Assembly (NCBI GenBank): GCA_963664115.2
Contig: CAXWPJ010000002.1
Coordinates: 128,001-192,000, forward strand
Reading direction: 5' to 3'
From: Terriglobia bacterium
GTDB taxonomy: Bacteria > Acidobacteriota > Terriglobia > 20CM-2-55-15
Length of the DNA stretch: 64,000 nucleotides
A program made the translations under genes and the position numbers. A model generated the notes under the pieces. The model was not told the DNA's origin, did no database searches, and saw only the letters and a list, made by a program, of their open reading frames with translations. Numbering within the stretch: the stretch's first letter is position 1; every line of letters starts with the position of its first letter. Shown piece by piece: positions 52,534-64,000 of the stretch.

Positions 52534-53864
52534 TCAGCCGACGACAAGGTATCGGGCCAGAATCAAGATCGTGAATATCCAGATCAGCCAGTGCAGATTC
52601 CGGTACCGTCCGGATACGAGGCTCAAGAGCGCATAGCTGATCAAGCCGAAAGCGATGCCATCGGTGATCGAGAACGTGAACGGAATGACGGTAATCGTAA
52701 TAAACGCCGGGATGTATTCGTGAGGATTGTCCCAGGCGATCTGTCCAACATTTCGCATCATGAACGCGCCCACGATGATCAGGGCCGGCGCAACAGTCGG
52801 ATACAGAGTCAGACCCGACGCATCCGTGTGTCCGGCGCCTATCATCCGGGCGAGCGGCGCGAAGAACAGGGCGAGGAGAAACATGCCTGCCGTCACGATA
52901 TTCGCCAGACCCGTGCGTGCCCCTTCCGCGACACCGGTCGCGCTCTCGATATAGCTGACGATCGTTGAATTCCCGATGAGGCCGGATGCCGTCGTACCAA
53001 TGGCATCCGCCATCAGCGCCTCTTTTGCGCGTGGCAAATCCTCACCTTTCATAAAATTGCCCTGATGCGCGATGCCGATAAGCGAACCGATACTGTCGAA
53101 TAGATCCAGGAAAAACAAAATGAAGATCACTGGAAGCGCTCCGATGCTGAGGGCACCGGCGATATCCAGTTGAAGAGCAACAGGAGCGATGGACGGGGGC
53201 GGCGCGAACACCCCTTCGAAGCGGACCACCCCCAGAAACAGCCCCAGTGCCGTACTCGTAAAAATACCTGCGAGTATCGCGCCACGTTGACGTCTCACCA
53301 AAAGGATCATCGTCACGGCTAGCCCTGCCGTCGACATCCAGACCGCAGGCGCTCCGAGGTCTCCCAGCGCGACCAGGGTCGCGGGATTGGCCCCGACAAA
53401 GCCGCCCCACTCCAGCCCCACAAGCGTAATCAGCAAACCGATACCGACAGCGATTCCGTATTTCAACGACCCGGGTATTGCATGCACAAGGGCTTCCCTT
53501 AGCCCCCAGAGCGATATCACCAGGAACAGAACGCCGGATATGAAGACGGCCCCAACGCAACCTGCCAGGTGAAACCCATAGCGCCCACAACCGTGAATAC
53601 AAAGAAGAAGTTGTGACCCATCGCTGGAGCCAGAGCGATGGGATAGTTCGCAAGGAAGGCCATCAGCAGGGTGGAAAAGGCACTGATGAGACAGGTCGCC
53701 GCGAGGACGGCATCGAAGTCCATCCCTGTCGTACTCATCACAGCCGGCTGAACGAAGACGATGTAGGACATCGTCATGAAAGTCGTCGCGCCACCCAGCA
53801 ACTCGGTCCGGTAGCTTGAACCGGCAGCGGCGACACCAAAGGTCCGCTCAAGTCACTCGGACAT
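52534..53864 (-). pseudogene. NCS2/AzgA-type purine permease, disrupted
   Basis: In-frame TGA at codon 4 (53853-53855) and a 1-nt loss in the G-run near 53550; ELLGGATTFMTMSYI, APAMGHNFFF, YIESATGV.EG.RTGL. Confidence 0.8.
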
Positions 53865-53865
53865 G

Positions 53866-56800
53866 CTAGAACCGAAGACGCAGACCCAATTGAATTTGGC
53901 GGGGCGCGAAGGCTGAGGTAAAACCGAGTGGGTCTGTCGCCGCCCGCGAGGGATCCCCTTGCACGTCAAACGCACTTAGAGACGTTCCGACAACGTTATT
54001 CACGCCGGAATAATTGACTCGGTTAAAGAGGTTGAACGCTTCGGCCATGACTTCGATCCGCGAGTTGCGATTCCGGAAAATAAAAGCTTTGGTCACGCGT
54101 AGATCCAAACTTGCAAAACCGGGACCGCGACCCGTATTGCGTCCGGCGAAGGGCGGGCGGTCGGTATTCGCATTCGTGTCTCCGTTAGCGTCAAAACCCA
54201 TCAGCAGGTTGAAGGGATGGCCGCTCGCAATCGTCAGGATTGGAGACATGGTGAGATCGGCGAGTACCTTGCCAATGCCGAAGCCGCGTTCAAACGGAGA
54301 CGTGAATACACCACTCATGACGAAACGATGGCGTTGATCATAGGCCGATAGCGAGCGTTCAGCCTGAAGATCCAACTGGTTCGCAGCCTGGAGGTCGGTT
54401 ATGAAATCGACCGTGTCGTCGATGCCTTTCGACCAGGTGTAGGATGCCTGAAACTCGTAAAAGTCACTGAATCGTTTGCGTGCCGTTGCGGTCATCCCGT
54501 GATAGATGGAATTCCCGGACGATTCGACTTGGTTGTCCTGTAACACTCCAGGGTCGCGGGGTCCGAAGGTCGGCCCGAATGCGTTACTCCCCGTAACTCT
54601 AAGATTCGCGTTCCGGGAACGAAGCAGCTTCGTCCCACGGTTCATCAGGTAACCGACACTCGCCGCCATGTCGGTTCCAAACTCCCGTTCCACTGCGAAA
54701 CTGACTTGTTGGCTGTACGGATTTACCAGATCGGGAGCTGAACGCAACAACACCGGGGGCGTGGTGCCGGGATCGAGACCGAGCGGTGCGATGTCGGCCG
54801 CGGTGATTTGACGGGATCCAATAATTCCCTGCTGCTTCAACGATCCCCATATCTGGGCTGAAGTTGCAGTAATCCCTAGCTGAGGCAAGCCCGTCAAAGG
54901 CACGAACAGCTGGGATATTTGGGTCCCGTTAAGCACTCTTTCGATGAACACCACCGCCTGATAGACCGAGGCATAGTAAATTCCATAACCGCCCCGAATG
55001 ACTGTGCGCTGATCGGGACTGTATGCGAACCCGATTCGGGGCGCGATGTTATTCATGTCCCGATTCAAAGGCGTCGGTTGGAGTTCCACGTCGTAGCGCA
55101 GACCCAGATTCAGCGTCAGGGATGGAGACACCCGGAATTTGTCCTGAACGTAAGCGGCAACGAGTTTGTTCTCAAGGTCCGCGACCGGATCTCCGAAGCC
55201 CTGCTGATACGCCAGCGGCAGACCCAGATTGAATGCCTGAAGAGAGTTGATCGGTGCCGACAACGCGGGTAAGAGGTCCGCACGTCCCAAACTCGCCAAT
55301 CCGGCCCCAACGACAGCGGCGGTACCGAAACCGCCCACCTTGTCAATCAACGAATACAGAGGAATAGCCTCTCCAAAAATGAAGCGGCTGCCAAAAAATA
55401 TTTCAGTTCTCGTATCCAGGAGCAGGTAGTGAAAATCCCCGCCGAACTTCAGCTCGTGATCTCCCGACACGAGCGTAAAGTTATCGACCCACTGAAACCG
55501 TTTTTCTGTTCGAAACGAAGGCAGGAAAAAATCACGCCCCAGAAGCGCCGTCCCGTTGATGTTGATCTCAGGTCCGAACGCGTCGGCAGGTATCGAATTA
55601 AACTCTCTCTGCGCAAACTGAAAGCGGAATTCGTTCACGCGATTGGAGTCGAAGAAATGCGAATCTCCAAACACCACGCCAAAATCCTGAATCTGGTGAT
55701 TGACTCCTCTGGAAGGTCCTTTCAGGCCGCCAAACGATCCGCCGATCGTATCAACATCGGAGAAATTCGTCCGCAGGAACAGTTGGTTACTGCCTGTCGC
55801 CTGGTGATCGATCCGTAAGGATGTGCGATTGTCGCTGTTTCGGAAGGGAAACACGCCGCTGTTTTCCCGTAAGAGCTGAATCGTTTCCGGGTATGCCACT
55901 TCGGAAGTCGTCAAAACGCCGCGCAGCGCAGAACCGAGCGCCTGGAAGGATGGAACCGGAGCAGAGACAAGTGCCTGGATCAACGATTCCTGAGACGGCG
56001 TGGGCTGGAACAATTCTTCGCTTTCGAGGAAGGTCGAGAAATTCGATTCCCTCTGGCGCAACCCTTCGTAAGACAAAAAGAAAAAACTGCGGTTGGGGAC
56101 AATCGGCCCACCGAGGCTGAAACCACTTTGGAGTCTGGAAAACGGCGGATCGATATTGGTTCCCCCGGGTCCAAATGCAAAGGGGTTCCGCGCATCCAGG
56201 GCCTGATCCCGAAGAAAAGCGAATATCGTTCCCGACAGATCGTTGGCCCCGGAACGTGAAACGATATTGATCAACCCGCCGGCTGCCCTGCCGAACTCCG
56301 CCGAGTAGTTCGAACGATTGATCTGAAATTCCTGGACAGCTTCCTGGCTGAGGGTTGACCGGACGGTCGCCACGGCGTTGTCGTTGTTGTCCACACCGTC
56401 AATGGTCACGCTGTTGGAACGGCCGCTCTGACCCGCAAACGAGAGCCCCGAATCGGGTGCCTGAGGCAGCGAGAAAGAGATCAATGCGTCTGAATCGGTG
56501 ACGCCGGGCGTCAGCAGGGAAAAATCCAGAAAATCCCGCCGATTGATGGGCAGGTTATCGATTCGGAATTCGCTGATGGTGTCCGCCTGCTGCGTCTTTT
56601 CCAGTTCAAGCAAAGGGGCCTGACCGATCACCAGTATCTCCTCCTGGAGTTCGGCCGGTGTTAATCGTATGTCGATGTTGAGGCTTTGCCCCACCTGGAG
56701 TTGAATCGGGCGCCGGGTCTGGATGGCGAATCCCTCAACCTCGAAGCGCAGTTGGTAGGAACCGGGGGTTAAAATGAAAAAGCGGTAGGTCCCATCGTTA

Positions 56801-56982
56801 CCGGTCGTGGTGCGACGGCTCACACCGGTATTACTGTGGGTGATCGTAACGGAAACGCCCGTTACGAGGGCTCCATCCGGATCGAGAACCCTCCCGCGGA
56901 TGTCTCCCGACGACATCTGGGCCTGCGAACCACCGCTCACGGCGATTGCGCATATCAGGCAGATGCTACCGATAATCTTCAT
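53866..56982 (-). CDS. TonB-dependent receptor (Oar-like, N-terminal carboxypeptidase-regulatory domain)
   Basis: LPINRRDF, DGVDNND, EFQINRSNYSAEFG, LGLRYD, PRQIQLGLRLRF. Confidence 0.92.
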   Translation of the reverse strand: MKIIGSICLICAIAVSGGSQAQMSSGDIRGRVLDPDGALVTGVSVTITHSNTGVSRRTTTGNDGTYRFFILTPGSYQLRFEVEGFAIQTRRPIQLQVGQSLNIDIRLTPAELQEEILVIGQAPLLELEKTQQADTISEFRIDNLPINRRDFLDFSLLTPGVTDSDALISFSLPQAPDSGLSFAGQSGRSNSVTIDGVDNNDNAVATVRSTLSQEAVQEFQINRSNYSAEFGRAAGGLINIVSRSGANDLSGTIFAFLRDQALDARNPFAFGPGGTNIDPPFSRLQSGFSLGGPIVPNRSFFFLSYEGLRQRESNFSTFLESEELFQPTPSQESLIQALVSAPVPSFQALGSALRGVLTTSEVAYPETIQLLRENSGVFPFRNSDNRTSLRIDHQATGSNQLFLRTNFSDVDTIGGSFGGLKGPSRGVNHQIQDFGVVFGDSHFFDSNRVNEFRFQFAQREFNSIPADAFGPEININGTALLGRDFFLPSFRTEKRFQWVDNFTLVSGDHELKFGGDFHYLLLDTRTEIFFGSRFIFGEAIPLYSLIDKVGGFGTAAVVGAGLASLGRADLLPALSAPINSLQAFNLGLPLAYQQGFGDPVADLENKLVAAYVQDKFRVSPSLTLNLGLRYDVELQPTPLNRDMNNIAPRIGFAYSPDQRTVIRGGYGIYYASVYQAVVFIERVLNGTQISQLFVPLTGLPQLGITATSAQIWGSLKQQGIIGSRQITAADIAPLGLDPGTTPPVLLRSAPDLVNPYSQQVSFAVEREFGTDMAASVGYLMNRGTKLLRSRNANLRVTGSNAFGPTFGPRDPGVLQDNQVESSGNSIYHGMTATARKRFSDFYEFQASYTWSKGIDDTVDFITDLQAANQLDLQAERSLSAYDQRHRFVMSGVFTSPFERGFGIGKVLADLTMSPILTIASGHPFNLLMGFDANGDTNANTDRPPFAGRNTGRGPGFASLDLRVTKAFIFRNRNSRIEVMAEAFNLFNRVNYSGVNNVVGTSLSAFDVQGDPSRAATDPLGFTSAFAPRQIQLGLRLRF

Positions 56983-57950
56983 CGCCCTTCCCCGGGTTCA
57001 GAAAGTTTTTCCTTCTTCTTCAGCTTCTTGTGCTCGTTTCGGAGATTCTCAAGGTGCACCCGTTCTTCGTCGGCGAAATCGCGAAACATTTTTCGTCCGC
57101 GAGGGTCGTCCATCTGCTTTGCAAATTCAGTGAAAAACCGATGCGACTTCCGTTCGAGGTCAATCGCAATTTCGAGGGCCTCCAGGTGCGTCGTTCTATC
57201 CCGAACATTAACGTTAAGCAGTTCTCGTTCCGGAAAAATCTGATCGGCAATTTTCCGGCTCACTGGAAGGCGAGTCGGTTCCCGTCGAAGCCACCCATGC
57301 GCTTCGATCAGGGCCCGGTATTCGTGCTGCAGCTTGTCCAGATGTTCGGATTCCTCTGCTGCCAAATCCTGGAACATCCGTCTGCCGCGGGGGTTTTGGG
57401 TCTTCTTTGAGGCGTTTATGTAGAAGCTGTAGCCTCGCCGCTCCACTGCCAATGTCAATTCGAGTGCATCCCGGGCGAATATTTTCTGCTGCCTGTCTTT
57501 CGTGTCCAGACCCACCTCGCGAAGCTCCTGGGCGACACACTCCCGACAGAATCCGAAGATCGCGTAGCGGCTATAGACGGCCTGAAAATCGTTTTTGTCG
57601 GTTTCTTCCCGAATAAGATGTTCGATACGACGGGAAGGAAATTCCTGAGTATTGCCACATTGGTTGCATATGAAGTGAATATGGTTGGGCTGGTTGACCA
57701 GGGCCTCGTAGCGCGTCGTATCCGCAGTCTTAGACTGCCGGATCATTCCGGATTCGAGCAGGATCTTCAAGGTCCGATAGATCGTGGATAAGCCGATCCG
57801 ATGACCCTGCTCGAGAAGACGCTCCCGCATGTCCTCGACCGAGGGATGGTCCTCAGCCTTGAGTAAAGTTTCCCAGACCAGGGCCCGCTGGGAGGTCTTC
57901 TTGAGCTTGTTCTCCGACAGGAATTCCTGGAAGCGTTTTTTCTGCTTCAT
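56979..57950 (-). CDS. Fur-family regulator fused to ferritin-like/rubrerythrin domain
   Basis: TSQR, HPS, STIYRTL, HIHFICNQCG, GFCREC; then E..GY.FY...EESEH...E..SH.FF...EERVH. Confidence 0.85.
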   Translation of the reverse strand: MKQKKRFQEFLSENKLKKTSQRALVWETLLKAEDHPSVEDMRERLLEQGHRIGLSTIYRTLKILLESGMIRQSKTADTTRYEALVNQPNHIHFICNQCGNTQEFPSRRIEHLIREETDKNDFQAVYSRYAIFGFCRECVAQELREVGLDTKDRQQKIFARDALELTLAVERRGYSFYINASKKTQNPRGRRMFQDLAAEESEHLDKLQHEYRALIEAHGWLRREPTRLPVSRKIADQIFPERELLNVNVRDRTTHLEALEIAIDLERKSHRFFTEFAKQMDDPRGRKMFRDFADEERVHLENLRNEHKKLKKKEKLSEPGEGR

Positions 57951-58050
57951 CGGTCACGAATTATACAAGCACCGCGATTGAAGAACGAGGGAATCGCACC
58001 CCCACCGGTAAGCCGTCTTACGTTTGCCCAATATCCCTGTATGCTATAGT

Positions 58051-58070
58051 TTATGGATATAAATCCACAA
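58051..58070. promoter_or_regulatory. Imperfect palindrome after extended -10 box, candidate operator
   Basis: TTATGGAT-ATAA-ATCCACAA directly after TGCTATAGT. Confidence 0.35.
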
Positions 58071-58081
58071 GAGGATGACAC

Positions 58082-58645
58082 ATGAAAAACATTCTGCTTT
58101 TGACTCTTTTTTCTGTCGGCCTGGGAGCATGCACTTTCGAGATGCCGGAATCGGCCCTCGATGGTTCATCGGCTGCCGGAGGTCCCGGTTCCACAGCAAA
58201 TCTGCGGTCCGCACCGGAATTCGATCTTGCATCATTCGCAGGCGGAACGCTGAATTCCGAAGAACTCAAAGGCAAGGTATTGGTGGTGGATTTCTGGGCA
58301 ACCTGGTGCAGTCCCTGTATCGAAGAGATACCGAACTTCAACACCCTGCACGCTGAACAAGACAACGACAAGTTCGTTATGTTGGGCATCACGGTTGAAT
58401 CCGGATCCTATGAAGACGTCGAGCCCTATATCGAGCGTTTCGAAATCGAGTATCCCGTTGTCATGGGTGATGAGGATGTCGTGACCGGGTTCGGAGGCCT
58501 CATCGGCTTCCCGACGACATTCGTTGTCAGTCCGGATTGGAAGATCTATAAGAAGTACCTGGGCATGAAGACAGGAAAGAAGGAATTGATCGAGCAGGAC
58601 GTGATCGACTTGATTGGTTCCGAGGAAGTCGCGGAAATCTTTTAA
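58082..58645 (+). CDS. TlpA/ResA-like thiol-disulfide oxidoreductase lipoprotein
   Basis: LGAC lipobox; DFWATWCSPC; FPTTF. Confidence 0.9.
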   Translation: MKNILLLTLFSVGLGACTFEMPESALDGSSAAGGPGSTANLRSAPEFDLASFAGGTLNSEELKGKVLVVDFWATWCSPCIEEIPNFNTLHAEQDNDKFVMLGITVESGSYEDVEPYIERFEIEYPVVMGDEDVVTGFGGLIGFPTTFVVSPDWKIYKKYLGMKTGKKELIEQDVIDLIGSEEVAEIF

Positions 58646-58721: not shown

Positions 58722-59531
58722 TTACAGAGGGAGGCTTAGAGAAAAAAGCAGAAACTTGGAGAAAAACTCCCCAAAGAGGACAGCCACGACCGCAACGTAC
58801 AGCAAACCCGTCGCCGCCTGCGTATGCCCGAGCTTCAAGGTACTCCATATCATGGCGCCAAGCACGATCGGCACAACAACACCAAACATCACACGGGGCC
58901 AAAAGAACAATCCCTGACGCACAAACAGCTCCGAGGCGATATTTACAAGGGTGACATCCTGCTGTATTTCGAGCACGACCAGACTCAAGACAATAGTCAC
59001 GACGCGAAACGCGATCGCACCGATATACACCTTCGTCAAGAGCTTTAACGGATCGATTGGCAGCTTGGGCACGATCAGATACCAGTGTCCAAAAACCATT
59101 GCGAGCATGACCGATCCGAGCAATGCTGTCGCACCCAGGTGGTTCAACACCAAAACCCAGTGCTCCCACCCCCCGAGCTCCAGCAACAGGGTGAAGGCGA
59201 GCGAATCCATCGTGATAGAGACCAACCCGATCGCTGTGGCCAGGGCCAGTAAAACCAGCGCAGGCCGATATTTTTCAACGTGGACGGTGCGGTTGTACAT
59301 ACCGGCCAGAATCCCGGAAGCCAGAAGAAGTATGGCCGGCCACGCGCTCTCCCGCACGGGTGAAGCGAATAAAAAATCAAATCCGAGCGTGACACCTATC
59401 AACACGCCCGCCGTTTGGCTGGCAAACTTGAAAAAACTATTCCCGATCACCCGGGGAGAAATAAACAGCAGCGTCCACAGCATGCCAACGGCCAACTGGG
59501 AAAATAAAAAGAAAAACGTCGAGGAAATCAT
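58722..59531 (-). CDS. Multi-pass membrane protein (GHWYL motif)
   Basis: About 8 TM segments; MVFGHWYL; TQAATGLLY. Confidence 0.75.
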   Translation of the reverse strand: MISSTFFFLFSQLAVGMLWTLLFISPRVIGNSFFKFASQTAGVLIGVTLGFDFLFASPVRESAWPAILLLASGILAGMYNRTVHVEKYRPALVLLALATAIGLVSITMDSLAFTLLLELGGWEHWVLVLNHLGATALLGSVMLAMVFGHWYLIVPKLPIDPLKLLTKVYIGAIAFRVVTIVLSLVVLEIQQDVTLVNIASELFVRQGLFFWPRVMFGVVVPIVLGAMIWSTLKLGHTQAATGLLYVAVVAVLFGEFFSKFLLFSLSLPL

Positions 59532-59578
59532 GATCTAAACTTCGGAGCCAACCCAATATAGCATTCATCGAAGCGGAC

Positions 59579-60829
59579 TCACTCCCCGGCGACACCGAAG
59601 TACTCTGCCGACGCTGACCGTACGGCCTCGCTCGAATCCCAGGCCGACCGGTCGATCAGTACCAGAAATTTCCAGAGAGCCCTGTGTTTCTCCTTGAGAA
59701 TCCGTATCTCGGCGTTGTTCGCTCCTGAGAGCGGCTGAATTTCGCCGCTGTCGAGCCGGGCAGGAACTTCAGCTTCGGGAAGGGACATCCCGAGCGACGG
59801 ACAATAAACGATCACCTGGTGGGGATTGAGACCCGCGGCCTCCGCAATCGCACCCTCGGCTGTTTCTCGTTCTGAAGGACTGAAATGAAAGCGCTGCTCA
59901 AGACCCTTCTGTTTTTCTTCACCCACAGACACCGTCAGCATGTAGCAGGGCTTGTACAGCTTCCGGGCTTCAAACCGGTCCAGGATGTGGCCGATTCCCG
60001 CATGGTTGGAATAATCCTCACGCAACAACCACAGTAAGGTGTCGTCTTTGAGCGTCCTCAGTCGCACCGCGTCCAGGCCCGCGGCCAGGGCCAGTTCGAC
60101 CGCTTTCGAAATCATCGCTCCGGATGCGAGTTTCGTGTGATGAAAGTAGACACGCTCTGAAAGCGTGTAACGGATCCTCAACAGGTTGACCAGTTCCGAA
60201 AGTGCGTCCCGGCGCAAGAGGCCGTGCTTTTCCAGTCGCACGATCAGATGCCCGTCTTCTTCGTCGAAAGTCTGAAAGATGCGGTCGTCGTAGTACTGCG
60301 ACAGCCCACAAAAATAATTATCGCGGCGAAGATAGTCCAGTAGATCGGCGCTGATCGCCCCACTGACGATGTCGGAAGCAAAGCCCGCCGTTCCGGAGAG
60401 AATCGCGATCACCGCGTCACTCACGCCGTGCCTGTCGAGAACGTCTCCGACCGAAGAGTTCTTCATAAAATAGGTAAAGCGGTCCGCGTCCTGATCATGA
60501 CGGGGCAGAACACGCCGTTCGTCCTCCAGCGTGTGGCCAAAAGGAATGTGCGTGATGTCGTGAAGTAAAGCTGCAGCACGAATGACGCTCTCCTCGGCCT
60601 CAGAAACGGAGACGTTCCGGCGGATTGCATCGACCAGGCGGTGGGCCATCCAGGCCGTACCGACGGAGTGTTCAAACCGCGTGTGCATCGCCGACGGATA
60701 GATCAGGTAGGCCGTGCCCAACTGCTTGATCCCCCGGAGACGCTGGAATTCGGGAGTATCGATCAACTCCATTTCCAGCGCACCCAGTTCGATGTCGCCG
60801 TGGACAGCGTCTCGAATCAATTTTCGCAT
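59579..60829 (-). CDS. HD-domain phosphohydrolase (dNTP triphosphohydrolase-like)
   Basis: FQRLRGIKQLG, HTRFEHSVG, LLHDITH.PFGH, DLLDYLRRD. Confidence 0.9.
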   Translation of the reverse strand: MRKLIRDAVHGDIELGALEMELIDTPEFQRLRGIKQLGTAYLIYPSAMHTRFEHSVGTAWMAHRLVDAIRRNVSVSEAEESVIRAAALLHDITHIPFGHTLEDERRVLPRHDQDADRFTYFMKNSSVGDVLDRHGVSDAVIAILSGTAGFASDIVSGAISADLLDYLRRDNYFCGLSQYYDDRIFQTFDEEDGHLIVRLEKHGLLRRDALSELVNLLRIRYTLSERVYFHHTKLASGAMISKAVELALAAGLDAVRLRTLKDDTLLWLLREDYSNHAGIGHILDRFEARKLYKPCYMLTVSVGEEKQKGLEQRFHFSPSERETAEGAIAEAAGLNPHQVIVYCPSLGMSLPEAEVPARLDSGEIQPLSGANNAEIRILKEKHRALWKFLVLIDRSAWDSSEAVRSASAEYFGVAGE

Positions 60830-61019
60830 GGCGTATTCTGACTCCCCAGCTTGGGCCTCCATTTCCCGGGCCACTGCCGATCACCCGGACTTGCGACCGG
60901 GCCCATCGGTAACCGAAACAGGCACCATCGAATTATGCAGCATATGATCGATATGCCGAAAAACGCTCCGAACACCAAACACGCTATAATGCCGAGCGAT
61001 TCAACACTGGAGGTGTTTC

Positions 61020-61406
61020 TTGAAGTTTCTAGCGTTCGCGATTTTTTCTGTGGCTCTGGTGGTCTCCTGTGCGCCGGCCGAACCCGAACCGGCCGCCACG
61101 GCCGAAACCCCAACTGAGGCTCCCGCCGCGGCACCGAACGGGACTCGCGAAAGCCCATTCATGGGGCACGGCGTCATTCAGGAAGTCGGCGAAACCCAAC
61201 TCGTCATCCAGCACGATACGATCCCTGGCTTCATGGCCGGCATGACAATGGCTTTCCCCATAACCGCAGAGGCCTTGAGCGACGACCTGGAAGTCGGCGA
61301 CGAGATCATGTTCGATATCGAGCTGCTCACGGAGGGCTACCAGATTTTTAATGTCTCCGAGGTCGAGGCTGGGGACGACGATAGCGAAGAAGAAGACGAA
61401 GAGTAG
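61020..61406 (+). CDS. CusF-like copper-binding lipoprotein
   Basis: VVSC lipobox; IQHDTIPGFMAGMTMAF...LEVGDEI.F. Confidence 0.82.
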   Translation: MKFLAFAIFSVALVVSCAPAEPEPAATAETPTEAPAAAPNGTRESPFMGHGVIQEVGETQLVIQHDTIPGFMAGMTMAFPITAEALSDDLEVGDEIMFDIELLTEGYQIFNVSEVEAGDDDSEEEDEE

Positions 61407-61498
61407 TTGCACAGCCGGCCGAGCCCCGGACCACTATCCGGCGGCTTGAAAAGAGTTTTCTCCGGGTGCTACGATGCTCGAACGGCTTCAGTAAGCCC

Positions 61499-61569
61499 TG
61501 GGAGGTCGTCTAATGGTAGGACTGCAGACTCTGACTCTGCCTGTCGGGGTTCGAATCCCTGCCTCCCAG
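61499..61569 (+). tRNA. tRNA-Gln(CTG); CCA not encoded
   Basis: TGGGAGG/CCTCCCA acceptor stem; GCAGA-CTCTGAC-TCTGC anticodon arm; GGTTCGAATCC T-loop. Confidence 0.95.
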
Positions 61570-61821
61570 TTACTCATTTAAAAAGACTTACGGCACCGAT
61601 GGAGCTTCCGCTAATTCCCCTTGTGGGGACTTTTGGGGGGACCTCCGGTCTTTTCTGGCGCCACATTACTCAATCCCGTGGCCTCTACTGCTAAACAATT
61701 TGACCACACACTGTCAGTCGTAGGAGAATGGCCTATGAGTTCCTGCATGTCCCGCAACAAAGCGGTAGTTGCCTTGCCTGGAACGACTGCTTACCGTCCC
61801 AAACGGAGGTTTAAGAATCAA

Positions 61822-62961
61822 ATGGCCAGACTCATCTGGAGTGTTGCAATCGGATTCGTTCTTCTTGCAGCCACCCCACAAACTCTGTTCAGCCAAGTCC
61901 GCTTAGCGAGCGGGTTCGGTCAATCAAACATCGGAGGCCAACAGGTTTTCGTACATGTGACAGTGGCGGTCCCACCCGGTTTAGACGGACCCAGCGTTGT
62001 CGAAGATGCCGTCCGGGGTCAGGGGGCACGTCCGATCCAATCCGCAGCGTTTTCATTGACGGGATTGGATTGGAAGAACAATTCGCCTGAGGGGGCGCAG
62101 AATGTGCTTCAGTCCCAGAACTTTTCAGACCTCCCAGACGCCCTAACCGACCCGGCGGTACTGGCATTGAAAGCCTCTCAGGAGACGTGGAAAGAGGACT
62201 GGCAAGAGAACAACAATGTCTCCGATACTTCAGAATTCAGCTTTTTAGACGGTGGATTTACCGACCAATGTCCATCATTGGCGAAGCAGTGTCCTGGAAG
62301 GCAGTTTGCTGACCAACTCAATGATGTCGGCTTTATCTCCATTGGCGGATGCTGCACTCTGGCGGCTACATGGTTTCTAAGAGGCAGCTCGGACAGCACC
62401 TCCGCTGCGGACGAACCCGAGGCTGACATCGTCGTGAACAGTCGCGTGAATTGGAACAGCTTCGATCTCGAGACCGTGCTTTTGCACGAGCTTGGACACG
62501 CTCTCGGCTTGGGACATTCTTCGGTTGCCGGAGCTGTAATGGCAGCCACTTATACTGTCCCGATACCAGACCTGCAGGAGGACGATGTGCGCGGCGTTAC
62601 GTATCTCTATCCTCGACAGGGATGGGTCGGATTGATTAGCGGTACGGTCGTCGAAGATGGGTCCACACCTGAACTGGCTATCGAAGGTGCCACGGTCTCT
62701 ATCGCCGATTTTCCCGTATCCGACACGACCGAATCGGACGGGAGCTACTCTCTCACAGGTGTGCCGGACATTGGAGAGTACGCTGTGACGGTGAGTGCGA
62801 AAGGCTATCTGAGTCAAACGATAGCTAACATCGACGTGCCAACAAATCTCCCCACCATTAAACTCGTCAAAGAATCCGACGATGGCGGCGGTGGCAATGG
62901 CGGCGGCAATGGCGGTGGCAAGGACAAATGCAAGAAGAACGGCCCCTTCGCTTGCCCTTAG
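61822..62961 (+). CDS. Matrixin (M10) metalloprotease with carboxypeptidase-regulatory-like domain
   Basis: HELGHALGLGHS plus AVM Met-turn; signal peptide; GGAGG RBS. Confidence 0.88.
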   Translation: MARLIWSVAIGFVLLAATPQTLFSQVRLASGFGQSNIGGQQVFVHVTVAVPPGLDGPSVVEDAVRGQGARPIQSAAFSLTGLDWKNNSPEGAQNVLQSQNFSDLPDALTDPAVLALKASQETWKEDWQENNNVSDTSEFSFLDGGFTDQCPSLAKQCPGRQFADQLNDVGFISIGGCCTLAATWFLRGSSDSTSAADEPEADIVVNSRVNWNSFDLETVLLHELGHALGLGHSSVAGAVMAATYTVPIPDLQEDDVRGVTYLYPRQGWVGLISGTVVEDGSTPELAIEGATVSIADFPVSDTTESDGSYSLTGVPDIGEYAVTVSAKGYLSQTIANIDVPTNLPTIKLVKESDDGGGGNGGGNGGGKDKCKKNGPFACP

Positions 62962-63010
62962 AGATTGAGTTTTTACGTGAGTCGAAGCGCGGTTAACCCC
63001 TTGTGGCCTT

Positions 63011-63040
63011 AGGGCCCGTCTTCATGGCGGGCCTTTTCTC
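63011..63040 (+). terminator. Intrinsic terminator
   Basis: AGGGCCCGTC-ttcat-GGCGGGCCTTTTCTCT. Confidence 0.7.
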
Positions 63041-63053
63041 TTTCTACTCAAAC

Positions 63054-64000
63054 TCAACCAACAGTGCCGGCCGTCGCAGTTTTCGTCTTTTCCAATAGCG
63101 ACGATTCCAGCCTATTTGCTGCCGCCCTGTTCGCTCCGGGAATCAAGTGTCCGTATAGATCGACTGTGATCTGGATAGAGTGGTGCCTCATCTGCTCTTT
63201 GACGTAGGTGATGCTCTCGCCCTGCTGGAGCATGAGGCTGGCATACGTGTGTCTCAGATCATGGAAACGGACTCGCCGAACCTCTGCCGCCTTCAGAAGC
63301 GGAAAGAACTGGCGCTGCCTGAGATTCTGTTCATCGAGGAACTGGCCCGCTTGATTGGAAAACACCCAATTTGGCAGACGTTCACCCTTCCCAAAGCACT
63401 CTTCCCTCTTTCGACGCTTTAGCTCTTCGAACACCAGGCTAAGCTCGTCCGGAAGATCAATCCGGCGCTGCAGGTGACTCTTCGGGGTTTCCAACCGACG
63501 ACGCGATACGGCACACTTTACGTGAATGCACCCATTCTGAGAATCGATGTCATCCCAGTGCAGACCGATCAACTCGCCCAGTCGCATCCCTGTAAGCACT
63601 GCGGTCAGCACGAAGGCGTACAGCTGAAAATCACCGTCTCGCGCCTTGACGAGTAACTTTTGAACCTCCTTGGTCGTGTACGGAACAACCTTCATCGCGT
63701 TCGCCTTTGACGAAGTCTCCTTCCTGAAGCCACCCAAGCGATTTGCTGGATTCGCCAGGATGATCCCTTCGTCAACAGCTTGGTTCAGCATTTGCCGTAA
63801 CGGAGCGATGATGTTCCGCACCGTCGCCTTGCTCAGGCCCTCCCCTATTTTCTTGGCGATCAGGTTCTTAATGTCATCCCGGGTGATCTCGTCGAGACGT
63901 TTCGATTCGATCGCCTTCAGGTGTTGATCGACGGTCTGTTTGTAGAGTCTGTGAGTCGCGTGTTTACAGTGAACCTTGACGTACTTGTCCAGCCAGGTAG
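63054..64000 (-). CDS. Phage-type tyrosine integrase (5' end outside window)
   Basis: TGMRLGEL, TPKS, RFHDLRHTYAS, HHSIQITVDLY. Confidence 0.9.
   Translation of the reverse strand, partial: TWLDKYVKVHCKHATHRLYKQTVDQHLKAIESKRLDEITRDDIKNLIAKKIGEGLSKATVRNIIAPLRQMLNQAVDEGIILANPANRLGGFRKETSSKANAMKVVPYTTKEVQKLLVKARDGDFQLYAFVLTAVLTGMRLGELIGLHWDDIDSQNGCIHVKCAVSRRRLETPKSHLQRRIDLPDELSLVFEELKRRKREECFGKGERLPNWVFSNQAGQFLDEQNLRQRQFFPLLKAAEVRRVRFHDLRHTYASLMLQQGESITYVKEQMRHHSIQITVDLYGHLIPGANRAAANRLESSLLEKTKTATAGTVG

Follow-up and report, generated by a model that had tools for sequence, protein, structure and literature searches.

Regulators of the Fur and PerR kind are known to sense through one mononuclear metal site, and in PerR the sensing of peroxide damages that site. 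Members of the family can be told apart by their ligands: Glu or Asp at the positions of PerR Asp85 and Asp104 separates Fur from PerR, and Zur has a Cys at the Asp85 position and no equivalent of His37 (PMC4866751). On the ferritin-like side, most rubrerythrins carry a rubredoxin-like domain (PMC5114695). Here we describe a gene that joins a Fur domain to a ferritin-like four-helix bundle. It lies in a stretch of 64,000 nucleotides (the window, to which all positions below refer) from a Terriglobia bacterium of the phylum Acidobacteriota (assembly GCA_963664115.2, contig CAXWPJ010000002.1, positions 128,001 to 192,000). By its sequence, the product is a Fur-family member with a new, predicted sensing module. 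A literature search, with most subscription journals beyond its coverage, found no study describing the fusion, and the initial annotation of this DNA knew of no characterised fusion of the two.

One intact gene encodes a Fur domain and a ferritin-like bundle

Two Pfam families match the fusion protein above cut-off: FUR at residues 14–125 (E 5e-26; 91.6 bits against a cut-off of 23.1) and Rubrerythrin (E 1e-14). This bears out the proposal of the initial annotation that the two domains form one chain, and the motifs it named (HxH, two CxxC, two E...ExxH sets) are found as H90/H92, as C95/C98 and C135/C138, and as E170/E200/H203 and E266/E296/H299. No NCBIfam model reaches its own cut-off on the protein; PerR models fall far below theirs, and the MbfA model matches at E 8e-9. 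The names given to the protein in databases are Fur family, rubrerythrin and transcriptional repressor.

The initial annotation had asked for an architecture search and for the exclusion of a frameshift at the domain junction, and would have given up the fusion if the domains were separate in all relatives and reads showed a stop between them. Contigs from three runs of three studies span the junction with zero indels, one of these runs being a possible source of the window DNA, and the 90% cluster of the fusion protein has five members, each of 323 aa. A word-index search with the protein returned 472 matches at E≤0.001, the best 120 of which cover 95–100% of the query and contain both Pfam families in each case. 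The fusion is a genuine gene and not an artefact. We also looked for stand-alone copies of the bundle. The 45 matches of 91–293 aa, mostly from short contigs and many with a partial FUR domain, were read as fragments, which is not proof that stand-alone copies are absent. Runs labelled sponge metagenome hold 20–25% of the words of the sequence; we make no habitat claim.

The Fur domain has Fur-like metal ligands and lacks site 3

Conservation was assessed in an alignment of 104 genome-derived homologues with about 29–89% identity, from which three proteins shorter than 250 aa and one frameshifted copy were left out. The winged helix includes T56, Y58 and R59, of which T56 and R59 are kept in all 104 homologues, and the top Foldseek matches of the Fur domain are all Fur or PerR. 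The regulatory site 2 (H35, E82, H90, H92 and E103) is intact in 103/104 homologues and the structural Cys4 site (C95, C98, C135 and C138), which most Fur-family members have, in 104/104, with E82 and E103 present in every copy. E103 is the Glu that marks Fur proper at the PerR Asp104 position. The fusion has E82 and E103 in place of the Asp pair of PerR, and its E82 and H35 do not fit the pattern of Zur, so that by site-2 criteria the domain is Fur-like, neither PerR nor Zur. Since E103 is not Asp, the Fur site itself may be poorly sensitive to peroxide, which would leave a peroxide role to the bundle.

The initial annotation called the Fur domain complete. This holds for the winged helix, the HxH motif and both CxxC motifs, but not for site 3. 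The ligands of site 3 were defined, and located at the dimer interface, in PMC3130269, and we mapped them onto the fusion through an alignment with Mycobacterium tuberculosis Zur. In the window protein they are replaced by N89, I91 and S127, as they are in 120/120 close homologues. Site 3 is intact in just 32 of the 104 fusions (0/28 in the window's own family, f1; 26/28 in the clade typified by family f3; 0/24 in a third clade), compared with about 14 of 17 stand-alone Fur relatives, counted by eye. It is in general a less conserved site of Fur and is not required in all members. In a tree of Fur domains, that of the f1 fusion forms a long branch, separate from the stand-alone Fur; the tree leaves the deep forks open and does not decide between a single origin and several origins of the fusion.

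The bundle is predicted to hold a di-iron cofactor

Two structure models (mean pLDDT 80 and 83; pTM 0.54 and 0.53) place four long helices over residues 150–317 (150–183, 187–217, 255–279 and 283–316), and in both models a helix leads from the Cys4 site to the bundle. By fold, the bundle matches ferritin-like chains at Z 15.2 (2vzb, rmsd 3.4, 156 residues aligned) and Z 15.0 (2oh3, rmsd 2.6, 136 aligned), scores that have to be read knowing that helical bundles in general score high. The nearest solved sequences are TM1526 (1vjx), 2fzf and 2oh3. All six predicted di-iron ligands (E170, E200, H203, E266, E296 and H299) are present in 99/104 homologues, including 28/28 copies from f1; four of the five homologues with an incomplete set come from family f53. 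Y177, seven residues past the first ligand E170, is conserved in 102/104. At the domain boundary, R160-D161 is invariant (104/104), which suggests a fixed contact.

No rubredoxin or CxxC follows the bundle, the last 165 residues being free of CxxC in 104/104 homologues. Classical rubrerythrins also have an extra glutamate three residues past the third-helix ligand, a feature on which a literature search found nothing; at the equivalent position, 269, all 104 homologues have Ser, Ala or Thr. By the missing rubredoxin and by this second feature, the bundle does not look like a classical rubrerythrin. The label "rubrerythrin" in the initial annotation was thus overstated, and the bundle resembles the six-ligand bacterioferritin/COG1633 type. 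We predict that it holds a di-iron cofactor of the bacterioferritin kind.

The fusion is widespread in Acidobacteriota

All 23 named genome loci with the fusion are Acidobacteria records, and full-length homologues span 24 Acidobacteriota families. In a survey of 300 other genomes of the class, the fusion was found, full-length or split between contigs, in 30/34 genomes of f1 (one broken by a stop), 28/31 of f3 (two broken, one cut at a contig end), 2/7 of f11 and 1/50 of f6, and it was not among the matches listed for the other nine families. A survey of 300 other genomes of the phylum gave a full-length match in 47 genomes of 20 further families. The fusions group by family in a quick version of a full-length tree. 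Three from f11 and f6 (L075–L077, in genomes G026, G035 and G132) nest within a genus of f3, suggesting transfer or a binning error.

The Atlas holds four clusters with the fusion layout, in which Acidobacteriota is the commonest phylum, and at a weak score of 0.82 a Bacillota cluster that combines FUR, Rubrerythrin and rubredoxin. A 1.8-billion-sequence search added more distant fusions (P0178, P0184 and P0201) and one protein, P0237, with the ferritin-like domain before Fur. P0201 is a separate Fur-ferritin fusion, and P0177, P0188 and P0207 are tandem Fur-Fur proteins.

Fur-type boxes precede feoAB where the fusion is the only Fur

We searched 80 genomes with the FUR model, 78 of which, all outside f1, carry the fusion. 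It is the only Fur-domain match in 42 of these 78, single-contig genomes included, and 32 of the 42 have FeoB matches. We examined 50 of the 55 matched FeoB loci in two sets divided by score rank: the 24 with the highest scores, mostly short frames, of which one was checked and lies beside DtxR-family genes, and 26 others with full feoAB. The 17-base box WTGAAAATNATTTTCAW, published for delta-proteobacterial Fur (PMC545781), was counted at up to four mismatches, with block shuffles as control. It was found before 12 of the 26 full feoAB loci (shuffles 2.5, maximum 4) and in 3 of the 24 top-scoring loci (shuffles 1.2). Five more loci, from another clade, have the variant TGAGA-N5-TCTCA. In one genus the box stands at the head of a run of ferritin, DinB and feoAB genes, and in genome G108 the same box lies upstream of a stand-alone fur gene. 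Given the sole-Fur status in 42/78 genomes and the Fur-type boxes before feoAB, the fusion is likely the iron repressor of those genomes, which is the simplest reading of these data.

The window's family has a second Fur

Besides the fusion, the window genome has one other Fur match, a stand-alone protein of 145 residues that is 38% identical and has all sites intact. Family f1 is a special case, with a fusion that lacks site 3 (0/28) alongside an ordinary Fur. Fur-type boxes in the window genome (G000) were found before feoA (score 18.0; C2 near 220398) and before an operon for a porin-like and an FMN-binding protein (C10 near 535539). In the genome-wide scan, 98 of 306 matches came from a dispersed repeat and were removed before the list was read. 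The repeat occurs on many contigs of this genome (G000), with none in the window, often near transposase-like genes, and has a near-perfect Fur-box-like core with 61 copies of an 11-base word. At the porin-like operon, locus L216 (G000:C10:533000-536200), the genome's strongest unique Fur box and two more nearby are followed by a 436-aa porin-like gene and genes for an FMN-binding protein and a membrane protein.

A PerR-like regulon was sought in f1 and rejected. By eye, the upstream regions of 30 peroxiredoxin and 18 katG loci are ordinary promoters with no common palindrome. One box (score 16.2) precedes the peroxiredoxin gene of the window genome and is not shared by the others.

The intergenic region and the neighbouring genes

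The fusion gene lies between a TonB-dependent-receptor-like gene and a divergent tlpA gene (Table 1). In the 131-base region between the fusion and tlpA, a TATAAT stands 7–10 bases ahead of the fusion ATG in 30/30 f1 loci. A sigma-70 scan of the region found no full promoter, and its best Fur-box score is only 2.0. The region measures only 15–59 bases in twelve relatives. The -10 boxes of the two genes appear to lie back to back, and several regions in L043–L053 are 28–36 bases long, where both genes would be leaderless.

Table 1. Features of the fusion locus, with positions in the window.
Feature	Position	Strand	Remarks
TonB-dependent-receptor-like outer-membrane barrel, 1038 aa	53866-56982	minus	CarboxypepD_reg, weak Plug, OMP_b-brl_4
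Fur + ferritin-like fusion gene	56979-57950	minus	Single ORF, 323 aa; Pfam, homologues, read contigs
Ferritin-like four-helix bundle, residues 150-316	57003-57503	minus	Predicted di-iron ligands; Y177; R160-D161; no rubredoxin
Fur domain, residues 1-141	57528-57950	minus	Winged helix, site 2, Cys4 site; site 3 replaced
TATAAT, likely -10 box of leaderless fusion transcript	57960-57965	minus	9 bases before start codon
Likely extended -10 box, divergent tlpA promoter	58042-58050	plus	Core at fixed distance in 25/30 f1 loci
Palindrome of the initial annotation	58051-58070		8/10 pairs; chance-level, unconserved; not an operator on present evidence
TlpA/ResA-like thioredoxin	58082-58645	plus	Divergent neighbour in 30/30 f1 loci

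The palindrome that the initial annotation had pointed out is present, but it pairs no better than chance: 221 of 2000 dinucleotide shuffles of the intergenic region reach at least eight pairs. Nor is it conserved, with 3–13 mismatches of 20 in 29 relatives (one of whose regions is too short to hold it) and one base that differs between strains. We reject it as an operator. Autoregulation through a Fur box was likewise rejected, no such box being found in 109 fusion loci.

The initial annotation was correct that the fusion stop overlaps the receptor start as ATGA (56979-56982). Among the 29 other f1 loci, the receptor directly follows the fusion in 22 and has the ATGA overlap in seven, and it is likely on the same transcript in f1. 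By crude gene calls, 130 of the 888 close same-strand gene pairs in the genome overlap in this way, and we reject the overlap as the mark of a dedicated module. The seven f1 loci without an adjacent receptor form one clade; in these a dehydrogenase gene comes after the fusion and in one case overlaps it by the same ATGA. Of the f1 genomes, 29/34 have a receptor homologue, and the barrel family has 77 matched pieces in the window genome. Six genomes of genus g6 carry a 58–63% identical homologue elsewhere in the genome; these six, which may be close paralogues, share no upstream motif or Fur box (best score 11.0). Loci of the f3 type have varied neighbours, with a different receptor tail to tail with the fusion in 16/31, and among 48 loci found elsewhere in the phylum, none has such a receptor within 4 kb downstream. 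The transcription unit lacks the Fur box that would mark the receptor as a Fur-controlled TonB-dependent receptor.

The divergent thioredoxin gene is where the initial annotation had placed it. One metatranscriptome had a 326-base contig on tlpA but no contig for the fusion or the receptor, which has no bearing on the expression of the latter two. Beyond tlpA, a 269-aa membrane protein without a Pfam match, an HD-domain protein and a CusF-like protein (58722-61406) are conserved neighbours in f1. They are followed at 61498-64000 by a tRNA-Gln, a peptidase-like ORF and, running off the window, an integrase-like ORF, both ORFs being named by eye; this is likely the edge of an inserted element. 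After the receptor, an NCS2-type permease (52534-53801, minus strand) is split into two ORFs (94 and 328 aa), whereas in relatives it is a single ORF of about 442 aa; the break seems real because contigs of three runs carry the same letters. In the clade of L109–L133, a class I fumarase gene lies upstream of the fusion and PHP, ABC-like and HAD genes lie downstream, in one run.

Discussion

We propose that the fusion acts as a Fur repressor in which the di-iron bundle adjusts DNA binding to iron load and redox state, and we rate the chances of this as about even. The joining of both domains in one chain and the conservation of their ligands are seen in the sequence. From what is known of Fur, the protein would form a dimer and act as a repressor with Fe(II) or Mn(II) bound at site 2; going by the sole-Fur genomes, it would read the 17-base Fur box before feoAB. 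The bundle would hold a bacterioferritin-like di-iron cofactor that O2 or H2O2 oxidises. More speculatively, but as the mechanism that we favour, the long first bundle helix, which begins about 12 residues past the last cysteine and carries E170, might relay the change to the Fur dimer. Since an ordinary Fur is also present in f1, the fusion likely serves there as a redox-weighted second Fur. The one-component sensor of the initial annotation is a fair reading, given a conserved fusion with intact DNA-binding and metal ligands. Its extension to the control of outer-membrane uptake is unsupported.

Several observations weigh against this proposal. Seven of the 12 feoAB box matches come from one genus, which reduces them to about five independent lineages. 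An Rrf2-type regulator could read a TGA-N9-TCA box, and the window genome has two Rrf2 genes; its boxes before feoA and the porin operon could also be read by the stand-alone Fur. No Fur-type box precedes the fusion gene itself (0/109 loci), and no common new motif was seen by eye before the 30 peroxiredoxin and 18 katG loci of f1. The pTM values of the models are too low to fix the arrangement of the domains. Finally, four of the five f53 copies (L105–L108 and L131) lose di-iron ligands while their Fur sites persist, in genomes with 2–5 Fur matches, and the di-iron site is thus dispensable in one lineage.

The bundle might switch nothing and act as a local shield or buffer, binding and oxidising Fe(II) and consuming H2O2 near the DNA-bound Fur, or passing iron to site 2, with the conformation of Fur unchanged. 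It is the only Rubrerythrin-family match in the window genome, which has no katG match, and Y177 occupies the position of the electron-relay tyrosine of Bfr. However, with no rubredoxin or CxxC after it, the bundle has no electron donor of its own to sustain turnover, regulators are as a rule present in too few copies to serve as bulk peroxidases, and the invariant R160-D161 at the domain boundary points to a fixed contact; we consider a shield somewhat unlikely. A metal-stabilised module for dimerisation or oligomerisation, replacing site 3 and sensing nothing, would account for the loss of this interface site in two separate clades and its retention in most stand-alone relatives. It is nevertheless unlikely, as the f3-type clade keeps site 3 and the di-iron ligands together in 26/28 copies, and the conserved tyrosine and exact six-ligand set suit a redox centre better than a structural metal.

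Two further explanations concern f1. In the version that follows the initial annotation, the fusion would repress its own operon by way of the palindrome and thereby govern metal uptake by the receptor next to it. The frequent adjacency and occasional overlap of the two genes, the divergent tlpA in every f1 locus and the receptor homologue in most f1 genomes are what this account would lead one to expect. It is made quite unlikely by a chance-level, unconserved palindrome and a best intergenic Fur-box score of 2.0 (18.0 at feoA), by the dehydrogenase gene that takes the place of the receptor in seven loci, by the six homologues at other sites with no common upstream motif, by the absence of such a receptor downstream in all 48 loci outside f1 and by the many pieces of the same barrel family in the genome. 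It is also conceivable that the f1 fusion is a PerR-like or manganese-selective regulator acting through site 2 alone, with the bundle as a passenger. Like PerR, it has no third metal site, PerR site-3 mutants become Mn-selective (PMC3130269), and its Fur domain lies on a long branch. We regard this as very unlikely, because the Fur-like E82 and E103 stand in 104/104 homologues where PerR has its Asp pair, all 28 f1 copies keep the di-iron ligands, and another clade without site 3 is often sole-Fur, with a palindromic box before feoAB.

A broader version of the proposed Fur repressor with a di-iron bundle is possible, if short of probable. On this reading, much of the Acidobacteriota would have as its main iron repressor a two-input switch, in which the mononuclear site reads free Fe(II) and the di-iron centre reads O2 or peroxide, the two jointly setting DNA binding. 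The f1 copy, freed by the second Fur, would have shed site 3 and turned into a sensor devoted to the di-iron redox state, with a regulon of its own. Fur/ferritin fusions of other domain orders and other phyla would have arisen repeatedly as the same device. Oxidant sensing by a di-iron centre tethered to a Fur could be reversible and could link iron uptake to oxygen status within one protein; in an abundant, mostly uncultured phylum, many genomes have no Fur other than this one. With a candidate target box supplied here, one purified protein and one short DNA would be enough for a test. Family f1 offers a natural comparison, having a site-3-less fusion and an ordinary Fur within one cell.

Among known systems, Fur proper (Campylobacter jejuni 6d57/4ets, Magnetospirillum gryphiswaldense 4raz/4rb1, Helicobacter pylori 2xig) shares with the fusion the winged helix, the dimerisation domain, the Glu at both site-2 carboxylates and the Cys4 site. 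Unlike Fur proper, the fusion has a 170-residue ferritin-like extension, a replaced site 3 in f1 and no box before its own gene. The closest solved relatives of the bundle are the rubredoxin-less ferritin-like proteins of COG1633 type (TM1526 1vjx, 2oh3, 2fzf), a group that includes the ferritin-like domain of the iron exporter MbfA, whose model matches the fusion below cut-off. Such proteins are stand-alone or tied to a transporter, whereas the bundle is tied to a DNA-binding domain. Di-iron four-helix bundles also serve as iron or oxygen sensors in the hemerythrin domains of FBXL5 and of bacterial signalling enzymes; these differ in fold family and output, and none is a Fur. The ferroxidase centre of Escherichia coli Bfr, a symmetric di-iron centre described as a stable cofactor, has the same E, ExxH, E, ExxH set and tyrosine seven residues past the first ligand (PMC7762939). 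The bundle differs in ligand spacing (30 and not 33 residues), is less than 20% identical to Bfr chains and shows no sign of a cage or haem. PerR (Bacillus subtilis 2fe3/3f8n) is like the fusion in having the Cys4 site and site 2 and no third site, and unlike it in having Asp and not Glu at positions 85 and 104; the fusion also has no rubredoxin. The delta-proteobacterial Fur regulon provides a box that is matched before feoAB in sole-Fur relatives of the fusion, and delta-proteobacterial perR-rubrerythrin operons encode as neighbouring genes the two kinds of protein that the fusion unites in one chain (PMC545781).

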